This document shows positions 21,001 to 24,000 of a stretch of DNA of 39,804 nt, piece after piece. This stretch comes from a virus. Its lineage: Duplodnaviria; Heunggongvirae; Uroviricota; Caudoviricetes. Made by a program: the position numbers. Every line of letters begins with the position of its first letter. Position 1 is the stretch's first letter. The DNA lies in the IMG/VR virus record IMGVR_UViG_2734482775_000002, positions 1-39,804 of that record. One strand, written 5' to 3'.

Positions 21001-24000
21001 CAGCCATAACGATCGACATAATCACTGCGCCCAGCGGAGTGTCTCCACGCCACCAGCTCTGAAACAACTCCAGCCAGTCCGGCCAGGTATTTGGGTTATG
21101 AGGCATTTCATCATCTCTCACCTCGCACATATCGCGGGTGCAAATTGAGGGAATAAAAAATCCCCGAATATTCCAGGAGCGGAAACGGGGAAAGGCGTTG
21201 CACTAAATGGGCCTGTCTGCGGCCTTAAATAAAAAACCTCGGCAAATGCCGAGGTCAGTTAATCATTGCCGCTGTGAGTGCCGCGGCGCACTATCTCTTT
21301 ATCAGGCCACTTACGCGTTAAACCGGGTGCCAACCGTAACTCAGTGATGCTTTACGCTTCCTCTCCCTCACTACGTCGCCATGGGAGCCCGACCAGATTA
21401 ACGCTGTCGTCACGTTGCCAATATATGGCATCCAATGCATTCTTTTTATTTAGCTATTTCATTTTTTCTATCCGTCAGAAACAACAAAACCCGCTCAATG
21501 GCGGGTTCTGGTAAAGTTCATGCGCTTGGTTCGCCTCGCGATACAGCTTTGCGAAGCGTACCGGAATTGAAGCAGTTTATGGCTAAAATTGCAAGAACTT
21601 TTTTAAAGCTGCATCAGCCTTTCCACCAGTTTATCTCTGCGAACAACAAACCAACCATTGGCTCTCGCCAGTTCCAGCCATGACTCAAGGGAAATAACAA
21701 TATCATCATCCCGCAACTGAATTGTGGAAACAGTGACACCGCCTCGCTGATAACAGAGAACTCGCGTGTCGTAACTTTTCTGGCATGAAGCTGGCGCTGA
21801 CGGATCCTTTTGTCTGAAATAGCAGTCTTCCAGCTTTTCGAACACATCCCACGCCTGATCGGTTTCGAGCATTTTGGCATGACGGGCTGCTCCGCGTTCT
21901 GTCCAGAGGATGAGGGAGCGGGCTTTCGGGGAAATTTGTAACCCTCTTAAAGATGGTTGCAAATTTTGTGAGTTACTTAAAGTAACCCGCAAATTTTGTG
22001 AGTAGTTTAAAGCTACCCGCAATTCTTTAAGGTCATTACCAACAACTTTGAAAAAGTGTTTCCCTTCAACGAAGCGTACTTTGTTCTCATGATGATTCTG
22101 GCGAATGCGCACCGGCTCAGTGCCGTAAAGCTGCGCCAAAAGTTCGGTGGTAATAACAGGAATCTGGTTATGGGTGATCGGGGAGAGAGTTTCAACAGAA
22201 ATTTGAGTTGTCATAATGACGCCCTCTGGTGGTTTCTTAATAACTCACCACCGACGACGCCAATCATCTGGTGGTGAACTGTGCAGGGTTGGCGTAACCG
22301 GGAAACCGACCGGCGCGGATCTCTCCGCCCCCACACAGCCCACCATAATTCAGATGTGCGCGTGCATACGACAATAAAAAACACGCTCGCGGCGTGTATC
22401 TGTCGCGGTCTCTATCCAGGACGCCAATCCCGACGCCAGATTTTGCTGGCGCGTGAGGAATATAGCCCCGGATAACAGATTGAGTCAACAGACGGTTTTT
22501 AGATCCCCGGAAGAGAATGCATCACGCATCGGCAGATAGAGCATAAACTCTGCCATTTTCAACCACGCATCTATGCGATTACGGCACGTGGCGTAACACC
22601 ACTCAGGGTGTGAATCATTCAGCAACTCAGCCATTTTTCGCTTAGTCATCCCCCTCCCTTCATATCGTTGCCGGAGGATACAAATCAATCCTGGGTGTTC
22701 TGCCAGCACTTCACTAATCACACGATCAATGCATAACGCCTCTGCATCAGTACAATGCACCAGCCAGCTTTTTTGCTTGCCGTTGATCATATCCCGCAAA
22801 AAAGCCTCAAGTTCAGGTTTGTCCAGACCTGCTTTTTTCATCCTCCGGAGCGCCTCGTTAATTGCCGTTTTTGTCAGCTTTTTAGAGGTCAGCAACTGGT
22901 TGAACATATTTCCCGTCTTACCGCCGCCAATATACGACCAGCGCCCCCACATGCGCAGTTTTCCCTGAATCCAGACACTTTCCAGCGTGGTGAGACGAAG
23001 GTGTTCCCCGCTTTTGCCTGTATTTGTTGGGTAAATCATAAATAACCTTCCTTTCTCCAGATTTCTTGCGTACGAAAAACACCTTCTGCATGCATCAGGC
23101 GTAATTCTTCTTTGGTGTAATCGCTGGTTTTTACCCGCCCGTCGATTAAATCGTGGCATGAGCTGCAGGCAATCGCTGCCTGCATATCGTGTGGTTTTGT
23201 CGCTGTTCCGCACGTCCCCGCCAGCCTGTAATGCGCCAGCACAGAAGTTTCGGGATTGTGATTGCAGTAGCCAGGAATTCTGACGGTGCACATCTGCCCC
23301 CGCGCCGCTTTACGTAAATCCACCATTACGCAAACTCCAGTAACTGCGCGGCCACATTTTCGACTTCCTCCGGAGAGGAAAATTTACGGAACAGGATCCA
23401 GTTCCACAGCACATTCAGTACAGATTTATAAACCTGCTGAAACTCGGTTTCGTCCATGTTCGCAAATGCGATAGATTTTGCCCTGCGCCCATGACTACCG
23501 TCCGGATAAAAATGTTCGGTGTAAAATCCGGCCTGAATGGTTACCCATTCGCGGAAAGCGTCAAATGACTTAAGCAATGCCGTATCCCGGGTTCTGCGTG
23601 TCGCAACGGCATTCAGATATTGCTCTGCGGCTTCGCTCAGGGCTGGAGTGTGTTCCCGACCAACTGATTCGCACAGATACTCAACGAAACCGGACACCAG
23701 TTCTCGTTCTCGAGGCGTGATCGCCCCACCGTTCGGAGTCCAGTAATCGAATCCCAGTTGCAGGAGTTTGAAAAAACGCTTGTGGAACGCGTAGTTACGC
23801 ACTCGCTTAAAGTCCGCGTGTATCCACTCACCTATTTTGATTTGATGCAAAAAATCGCAACTCTCCGGTGTCGCCGGGAGAAGTAATCCGGAAGAGGTTT
23901 GTTTGACCAGTTGTATATGCGCCATCGTAGTTCTCCGCTGGCGCAGTAGAATGGGTGTTCAGCCCGTTATGTAGTATAACAGAATTAATGCCAATACTAA

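Follow-up and report, generated by a model that had tools for sequence, protein, structure and literature searches.

When the gene for a Q-like antiterminator is followed directly by a good promoter and a terminator, is that promoter the one from which the late genes of the phage are transcribed? The question is raised by a tailed-phage genome of 39,804 nucleotides (nt), IMG/VR record IMGVR_UViG_2734482775_000002 (positions 1 to 39,804; this whole stretch is referred to as the window), in which such a promoter-terminator pair lies between positions 22488 and 22373. The original prediction took the pair for the late promoter (pR') and its terminator, expected a short 6S-like RNA of ~80 nt from it, and placed a Q binding or utilisation site between the two. 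A different answer is given here. We consider it quite likely that the pair is the start of an isrK cassette, made up of a small RNA gene, an antisense RNA of the C4 type and a gene for an anti-repressor (ant), in this order, that the late promoter cognate to the Q-like protein is a block at 21594-21478, and that the cassette separates Q from this block. A good promoter beside a Q gene is not necessarily the late promoter, and the misassignment would shift the Q-loading site by ~860 base pairs (bp) from its most likely place. The genes, RNAs and regulatory sites of this region are all on the minus strand.

The promoter-terminator pair and its small RNA

The promoter, designated PisrK (22459..22488), was located by a promoter scan and by conservation. 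It consists of a -35 hexamer TTGACT (22488-22483), an 18-bp spacer and a -10 hexamer TATATT (22464-22459), scores 10/12 in the scan, and is the sole minus-strand promoter-like match between 19 and 26 kb. Transcription is predicted to start at G22452, 7 nt past the -10 hexamer. The site is the one originally proposed as TTGACT-N17-CTATAT; the register moves by one base, as the conserved form of the -10 hexamer is TATA.T (here TATATT after N18). The terminator scan places a 6-bp stem with four G-C pairs at 22397-22381, followed by T6. A terminator is present after the promoter as had been described, although its strength is moderate. The unit that begins at G22452 ends with the T-run at 22376 and is 77 nt long. 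This pattern alone proves little: hexamer and hairpin matches of such quality turn up in shuffled sequence as well, hexamer matches by themselves stay within chance, and the scan gave 4 promoter-like sites (shuffles: 9.4 ± 3.0) and 14 terminator-like ones (shuffles: 7.0 ± 2.8).

The pair exceeds chance because of a full-length match to the Rfam family isrK (RF01394). The segment 22452..22376 aligns with positions 1-77 of the 77 positions of the model at 75.5 bits (gathering threshold 50, E = 1.4e-14), and the predicted start coincides with position 1 of the model. A match to the Rfam family c4-a1b1 covers 22465..22413 at 50.5 bits (gathering threshold 46.7). The IsrK-type RNA (22376..22452) is composed of an a1 hairpin (22452-22433, with the loop GCAAAAUC at 22446-22439), a b1 hairpin (22432-22417, with b1 UUGGCGU at 22427-22421), both placed by Rfam and by folding, and the terminator hairpin with its U-run. 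In addition to the full-length match above the gathering threshold, the RNA has its own sigma-70 promoter and a 3' intrinsic terminator (hairpin plus U6), it is followed by a C4 RNA and an anti-repressor gene with an ORF6N domain, and its b1 loop is exactly complementary to the b' loop of that C4 RNA. We read the promoter-terminator pair as the isrK gene, with which a portable cassette of the phage P1 immI type begins. The short RNA that had been expected is supported at this site, with the identity of IsrK and not of a 6S-like leader.

The gene that ends beside PisrK (22485..23039) encodes a Q-like antiterminator of 184 amino acids (aa), identified by Pfam, PHROG, profile and Foldseek searches. 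The open reading frame (ORF; 23039..22485) matches Pfam PF06576 (DUF1133) at 6e-108 and PHROG 753, "anti-termination protein Q-like", at 2e-81, with a marginal second Pfam match to PF06530 (Q21-type) at 27.5 bits against a cutoff of 26. A PDB search with a profile of 21 homologs returned Q21 alone (E = 8.6e-6), and the top 9 Foldseek matches to a predicted model of the protein were all Q21; the model is of low confidence (pLDDT 57.7) and was used as weak support at most. Judged by these profiles and this model, the DUF1133 Q of the window is a distant relative of Q21. Its stop codon TGA (22487-22485) lies inside the -35 hexamer TTGACT, so the promoter overlaps the Q stop as was first described.

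The end of the Q gene has features of its own. Loci that have the cassette and loci that lack it differ in the last few codons of DUF1133 Q (~8 codons when L004 3290-3316 is compared with 22485-22520 of the window), and in both kinds of locus the tail of the gene overlaps the -35 hexamer of whichever promoter comes next. The cassette is joined to the Q tail with precision.

IsrK-type units were collected from viral contigs, genomes and phage records, giving 130 instances and 104 unique cassettes. The gene that ends beside PisrK is a DUF1133 Q in 17 of the 130 instances, a Q82-type Q (Gifsy-1-like) in 11, a Q933W-type Q in another 11, ninE in 22 and some other gene in 69. Across 85 distinct upstream contexts the -35 TTGAC and the -10 TATA.T are in register and every start is a purine; the -10 hexamer has A(-11) and T(-7) in 85/85 contexts. 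The stretch of the window that begins at about -18 and takes in the first two-thirds of ant is ~99% identical to a segment of the Shiga toxin (Stx) 2 phage VT2-Sakai between ninE and roi, and in VT2-Sakai this copy of the promoter and IsrK is in the nin region, upstream of that phage's Q. Different Q families recognise different DNA sites, and the known Q proteins load solely at their own Q-binding element (QBE) and pause site. A PisrK/IsrK unit that is common to three unrelated Q families, ninE and more than 60 other contexts therefore cannot hold a Q-specific loading site. From this comparison of sequences, PisrK belongs to the cassette and not to Q, and the segment between promoter and terminator, where a Q binding or utilisation site had been placed, holds the a1 and b1 hairpins; the Q-utilisation site is not in 22488-22373.

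The same evidence bears on the explanation in which PisrK is a Q-dependent pR', the 77-nt RNA is a 6S-like leader with a Q-binding and pause site, and the hairpin is the terminator tR'. PisrK does lie directly after Q and overlap its stop codon, it is a good sigma-70 promoter that would yield a short terminated RNA, and a -10-like CAAAAT is found at +7 to +12. The discussion in PMC7547250 also treats the IsrK of Gifsy-1 as the product of an antitermination-regulated promoter. CAAAAT, however, is also the conserved a1 loop by which the c4-a1b1 family is defined, P1-type elements without Q included, and the whole segment from -18 to +77 is what recurs behind the three Q families, behind ninE upstream of the VT2-Sakai Q and in the more than 60 further contexts. 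Each Q family, moreover, keeps its own leader downstream of ant, and the transcript from PisrK runs into a C4 RNA and an anti-repressor gene rather than into late genes. We regard a Q-dependent PisrK as very unlikely, and the assignment of the pair as the late promoter is not retained. The comparative data argue against an antitermination-regulated origin of IsrK.

The C4 RNA, the anti-repressor gene and their pairing loops

The remainder of the cassette lies directly downstream of IsrK. The Rfam family C4 matches 22350..22267 at 66.7 bits (gathering threshold 45), which places a C4-type antisense RNA at 22267..22350 with an a' loop GGUUUC (22307-22302) and a b' loop ACGCCAA (22295-22289); its fold has an energy of -44.5 kcal/mol (z = -4.2). 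A motif search of the ant leader (22215..22266) located the C4 targets b2 UUGGCGU (22263-22257) and a2 GAAACC (22236-22231) as well as a Shine-Dalgarno sequence GAGGG at ~22226-22222. The ant gene (21603..22214) encodes an AnrP/Ant-like anti-repressor of 203 aa with an N-terminal ORF6N domain (Pfam ORF6N, 5e-19; PHROG 2379, "anti-repressor", 5e-93). The b1 sequence UUGGCGU of the window recurs exactly as b2 in the ant leader and has its exact complement, b', in the C4 RNA. The loop of C4 hairpin 2, a', is complementary to a2, which lies just 5' of the ant Shine-Dalgarno sequence.

These pairings are a general property of the collection. In 99 of the 104 unique cassettes the b1 7-mer has an exact complement in the C4 RNA and an exact second copy downstream; among the 12 b1 loop types, 9 retain both b' and b2. 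As a control, b1 types from other cassettes gave 2 antisense and 10 sense matches in 1144 tests each. The loop of C4 hairpin 2 (a') and the ant leader share an exact complement of at least 6 nt in 93 of 99 cassettes, and mismatched pairs mostly reach 4-5 nt. The a and b types assort independently, with the b type UUGGCGU being found with more than 10 a types, and the variable, independently assorting loops suggest that many mutually non-interfering immunity types exist. The a1 loop GCAAAAUC was fixed by the pattern used to search for the collection and is also the c4-a1b1 consensus; it is not complementary to a'.

Several studies provide a basis for how such a cassette operates. In Gifsy-1, PisrK drives lacZ fusions and gives rise to two transcripts, IsrK in its short terminated form and an isrK-orf45-anrP mRNA produced by read-through; a processed RNA, STnc1160, has also been reported (PMC4825925). 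IsrK supplied in trans turns on the translation of anrP, and the substitutions G28A and G31A abolish this activity (PMC4825925). Expression of IsrK, its binding by Hfq and its action in trans are known from Gifsy-1 only. G28 and G31 of the Salmonella IsrK map to b1, and the reported cis suppressors C162U and C159U fit b'. In the P1 immI operon, C4 represses ant (PMC8198154). By analogy with these systems, the best-supported mechanism for the window is masking of the ant leader by the C4 RNA through a'/a2 and b'/b2 pairing, relieved by free IsrK. Transcription would start at G22452 from a constitutive sigma-70 PisrK. Most transcripts would stop at the hairpin and U-run to give the 77-nt IsrK, and a minority would continue through the C4 RNA and ant. 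The a' and b' loops of C4 would pair with a2 and b2 beside the ant ribosome-binding site so that ant is silent, and b1 of IsrK would bind b' as a decoy and free the ant leader.

The long transcript of Gifsy-1 is ~910 nt and ends at the IsrJ terminator (PMC4825925); by analogy, read-through from PisrK in the window probably ends at the terminator tR' of the block at 21594-21478. This transcript is relevant to the explanation that both promoters feed the late genes, with PisrK acting as an auxiliary late promoter whose transcripts pass ant and enter the lysis genes once Q is made. The cassette is upstream of the proposed pR' on the same strand, the long Gifsy-1 transcript rises 8-fold with IsrK in trans (PMC4825925), and excess Q could relax termination generally, as over-expressed AntQ is reported to disturb termination globally. 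The long transcript nevertheless stops at the IsrJ terminator, and the exclusive loading of known Q proteins at their own QBE and pause site also speaks against such read-through. A contribution of PisrK to late transcription is, in our view, unlikely.

Several further features of the cassette were noted. The N-terminal two-thirds of ant has ~99% DNA identity to the ant of Stx phages; this homology ends at ~21814, and the C-terminal third of the window ant differs. Inside ant, at 21959-22022 (minus strand), a 30-bp tandem duplication of 2.1 copies with an 85% match encodes LRVALNYSQN/LRVTLSNSQN. An AUG in the conserved 5' end of the C4 RNA (UUAUGGUGGG) opens a 33-aa ORF (22346..22245, minus strand). 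The length of the upstream ORF varies among the cassettes, from 8 aa up to at least 100 aa, and the frames differ; the "orf45" of Gifsy-1 is therefore not a conserved protein. Two other ORFs across the C4 region, of 74 aa (22264..22488) and 57 aa (22211..22384), were judged to be non-genes, as the G+C-rich RNA leaves all three frames open; a Pfam scan of the 74-aa ORF found no match. Two isrK-C4 cassettes are present in some prophages (L010, 1290-1476 and 4588-4768; L055; L061), with one copy lying, for instance, in the nin region and the other behind Q, and the copies of some of these prophages have unlike b1 loop types.

A candidate late promoter beyond the anti-repressor gene

If the late promoter is not PisrK, where is it? 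A block at 21594-21478 starts a few bases past the ant stop codon and ends in the second of the three terminators of the original prediction. The proposed pR' (21555..21594), recognised by its motifs and by homology, has a -35 hexamer TTGCAA (21594-21589), a 17-bp spacer TTTTAGCCATAAACTGC that is the candidate QBE, a weak -10 hexamer TTCAAT (21571-21566), five intervening bases and a sigma-pause-like TACGCT (21560-21555). From homology and conservation, the start of transcription is predicted near 21561-21559, and the likely Q-binding region is 21588-21572. The predicted pR' leader (21478..21561), obtained from the terminator scan and from folding, is a 6S-like RNA of ~80 nt that ends in tR' (hairpin 21510-21485, with a 10-bp stem, and a U-run); its fold has an energy of -28.9 kcal/mol (z = -2.8). 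An alternative -10 hexamer, TAAACT, located 13 nt upstream of TACGCT, was considered and rejected, as it is absent from other DUF1133 subfamilies.

The composite motif TTG...-N17-[TC]T.AAT-N5-TA.GCT occurs once in the window and in 0 of 100 shuffles. It occurs once per locus in the 38 loci that match the pattern, and a DUF1133 Q is present where this was checked. The leader and terminator are found in all of the 35 distinct blocks, with the terminator being disrupted in one of them (L010). The similarity of the Q proteins tracks the similarity of the leaders (rho = 0.50, 0/2000 permutations), and some DUF1133 spacers, in certain subfamilies, contain AGTGAGCAA, which is close to the Q21 QBE half-site A[AT]TGAGCA. 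In cassette-free E. coli prophages the block comes directly after the stop codon of the DUF1133 Q and is followed by tRNAs or lysis genes. It abuts Q also in the intact DUF1133-Q loci of other Enterobacterales, the sole exception being the Pantoea locus L018, in which a hok/sok module intervenes. The block is thus inherited with its own Q family and has the -35 hexamer, 17-bp spacer, -10 hexamer, pause-like element and terminator in the order of a late promoter. On this comparative evidence, 21594-21478 is most likely the Q-cognate late promoter block, ~860 bases beyond the PisrK unit, and it offers a testable pR' for the DUF1133 Q proteins.

It could be objected that the block is a mere terminator at the 3' end of the early or Q transcript (here the ant transcript) and that the late promoter is elsewhere, for example near TATATT at 21425-21420. 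The -10 hexamer of the block is weak and was missed by the scan, and TATATT is a T-A-rich hexamer that precedes an element at 21414-21228 whose plasmid homologs begin at ~21414. A bare terminator, however, has no need of an invariant TTG-N17-[TC]T.AAT-N5-TA.GCT array. This array is kept whether it overlaps the Q coding sequence or is non-coding after ant or hok/sok, and it corresponds, pause element included, to the pR' annotated in phage 21. The element at 21414-21228, for its part, is found in 36 genomes only and is absent from most DUF1133-Q loci. We consider a terminator-only block highly improbable and retain 21594-21478 as the late promoter block.

The pairing of Q types with leader types is the same when the cassette is in between. 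With the cassette behind a DUF1133 Q, the block of this family is present 790-850 nt further downstream in 14 of 17 loci; those without the block are L006 and L007, in which an insertion sequence replaces ant, and L066, where the contig ends early. Where the cassette follows a Q82-type Q, an IsrJ-like unit comes after ant in 9 of 11, and where it follows a Q933W-type Q, a 933W-type pR' leader comes after ant in 9 of 11. Q and leader types are never cross-paired except in L077, which has a second, DUF1133-type Q beside its block. In phages without the cassette, IsrJ-like sequence abuts the Q82-type Q genes. Even at E values up to 10 the Rfam isrJ model matched neither the window nor L010, a DUF1133 locus of Salmonella, and in these sequence comparisons IsrJ goes with Q82-type Q only. 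In three Q families that are unrelated to one another (DUF1133/Q21-like, Q82-like and Q933W-like), the cassette appears to have lodged repeatedly in the few bases that separate a Q gene from the late promoter belonging to it.

Two other insertions were seen at the same junction. In Pantoea L018 (4555-5174) a hok/sok module separates the DUF1133 Q from its block, and an IS3-type element takes the place of ant in an E. coli/Shigella prophage (L006/L007, 4943-6099). The point at which Q meets pR' seems to be a hotspot for insertions. A more tentative suggestion, which we think possible but doubtful, is that the position of the cassette is selected and not accidental: the anti-repressor transcript ends at tR', Q would extend it, and the control of induction would in this way be linked to the late switch.

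Late (lysis) transcription would start at pR', and the transcripts would need Q to pass both tR' and the strong terminator at 21256-21235 (9-bp stem) before the holin gene. This gene (20771..21130; Pfam Phage_holin_3_1, 9e-26) is the first late gene. The two further same-strand terminators that had been placed before the holin are confirmed at 21510-21485 and 21256-21235. With both of them between the proposed pR' and the holin, the dependence of late expression on antitermination that had been anticipated is plausible, provided that it is referred to pR' at 21594-21555 and not to PisrK.

Several observations weigh against this interpretation of the cassette and the block. IsrK alone folds no better than shuffled sequence (z = -0.64), though the fold fits the consensus, and the view of IsrK taken in PMC7547250 is the opposite of ours. 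The 33-aa ORF of the window stops 30 nt before the ant ATG, so coupling to ant of the orf45 kind is not found, and the orf45-anrP coupling detail of the Gifsy-1 mechanism may not transfer here. In the block, the spacer of the window resembles the Q21 QBE loosely at best, and the proposed -10 hexamer TTCAAT does not have the usual A at position 2 and is unflagged by a simple scan. It could be that TA.GCT itself is the -10 hexamer, which is less likely, as there is no -35 hexamer at 17 bp and phage 21 uses this hexamer as a pause. The start sites, the pause and the Q dependence of pR' in the window are predicted from sequence.

Between tR' and the holin is a conserved, unannotated non-coding element of ~185 nt (21228..21414), delimited by the terminator scan and a genome search, which ends in the third terminator (21256-21235). 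Unannotated copies are present in 36 complete genomes of E. coli, among them plasmid records of ~30-50 kb in which the homology starts at ~21414, and TATATT at 21425-21420 is just 5' of the element. Its fold is not significant (z = -1.0), and it may be another small RNA gene. A tRNA scan of the whole window found none. Other Rfam matches in the window are at 24638-24787, 31927-31978, 37458-37636 and 39198-39342. A sok match is accompanied by a Hok-like ORF at 24485-24697, and the further matches are to DicF, RalA and a SraC/RyeA-SdsR/RyeB pair near the right end, which suggests that the prophage is inserted beside the ryeA/sdsR locus.

A 601-nt query comprising the cassette and the 3' end of Q found matches in 994 genomes out of 5,426 complete ones of E. 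coli, mostly through the cassette part. The matched genomes include Stx phages, in which an RNA-controlled anti-repressor bears on prophage induction and toxin release. The isrK and c4/ant families are already known, and the element in the window is a new member of them. What is possibly new is that the cassette stands between Q and pR' in three families of Q, and also the reading of IsrJ as a pR' leader that is set out below.

Comparison with known systems

The closest known relative of the cassette is the IsrK-orf45(STnc1160)-anrP system of Gifsy-1 (RF01394; Hershko-Shalev et al. 2016, PMC4825925). Both have a Q gene with PisrK at its stop codon, a 77-nt IsrK, a C4-like RNA, an ORF6N anti-repressor and a second short promoter-terminator unit, and the Gifsy-1 record gives the same three Rfam matches (isrK, c4-a1b1 and C4). 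The b1 loop UUGGCGU is identical in the two, including G28 and G31, which are essential in Gifsy-1. The differences are that Gifsy-1 has a Q82-type Q and IsrJ after ant, whereas the window has a DUF1133/Q21-like Q and the DUF1133 block, that the a'/a2 specificity is another one, and that the upstream ORF of Gifsy-1 is 45 aa and overlaps ant, while that of the window is 33 aa and does not.

The immI operons of P1 and P7 (RF01695, RF03163), as described in PMC8198154, follow the same logic: an antisense RNA is carried on the transcript of its target, it binds two sites in the anti-repressor leader through its a' and b' loops, a copy of these sites (a1b1) lies upstream, and a few loop bases set the specificity. 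The operon order given there, citing Citron and Schuster 1990, is a1b1, c4, a2b2, icd, ant. In the window the C4 and a1b1 covariance-model matches and the a'/a2 and b'/b2 complementarity with covariation are all present, and no conserved ORF corresponding to icd was found between C4 and ant. Compared with immI, the window lacks icd, has an ORF6N anti-repressor and belongs to a lambdoid rather than a plasmid prophage. Its a1b1 unit has its own terminator and so would give a free small RNA, and of the two upstream sites b1 recurs exactly downstream, whereas a1 does not. The CI RNA of P4 with its seqA and seqC sites, which is compared in PMC4825925, is likewise a processed antisense RNA flanked by complementary sites on one transcript. 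The pairing in P4 terminates the transcription of replication genes, unlike that of the window cassette, and no P4-family match was found in the window.

The block at 21594-21478 resembles the pR'-QBE-SDPE-tR' region of phage 21 (Q21 structures 6P18/6P19), where SDPE denotes the sigma-dependent pause element; the Q21 QBE sequences used for the comparison were taken from the annotated phage 21 record OL657228. In that record pR' consists of TTGACA 7 nt past the Q stop codon, N17, a weak -10 hexamer AACACT, N7 and the SDPE TAAGCT. The QBE half-sites ATTGAGCA and AATGAGCA are inside the 17-bp spacer, transcription starts 7 nt past the -10 hexamer, TAAGCT is at +2, and the terminator ends ~50 nt from the start. 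The position after Q, the -35 hexamer, 17-bp spacer, weak -10 hexamer, pause-like TA(A/C)GCT at the start of the transcript and short terminated leader are common to both, and the invariant TA.GCT of the block (TACGCT in the window, TAAGCT in several loci) matches the SDPE. The window differs in having ~860 bp of cassette between Q and pR', a leader of ~80 rather than ~50 nt, and a spacer that has diverged from the Q21 QBE.

The 6S RNA of lambda, the StxS RNA of Stx phages (PMC7547250) and IsrK are all short, constitutive, terminated RNAs from a promoter beside Q. The first two come from the promoter at which Q loads, whereas IsrK comes from the promoter of the cassette, and the counterpart of 6S and StxS in the window is likely the predicted 80-nt leader at 21561-21478. 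A corresponding division of roles can be proposed for Gifsy-1. IsrJ (L033, 33406-33512; also L034 and L035) has its own TTGCAA-N17-TATATT promoter right after anrP and a -10-like TGaTATCGT at about +9 to +17. With its own promoter, and with an IsrJ-like unit abutting the Q82-type Q where the cassette is absent, IsrJ therefore looks like a pR' leader. Contrary to the published description of IsrK, this comparison suggests that IsrJ is the true 6S-like pR' leader of Gifsy-1 and that IsrK is the C4 decoy.

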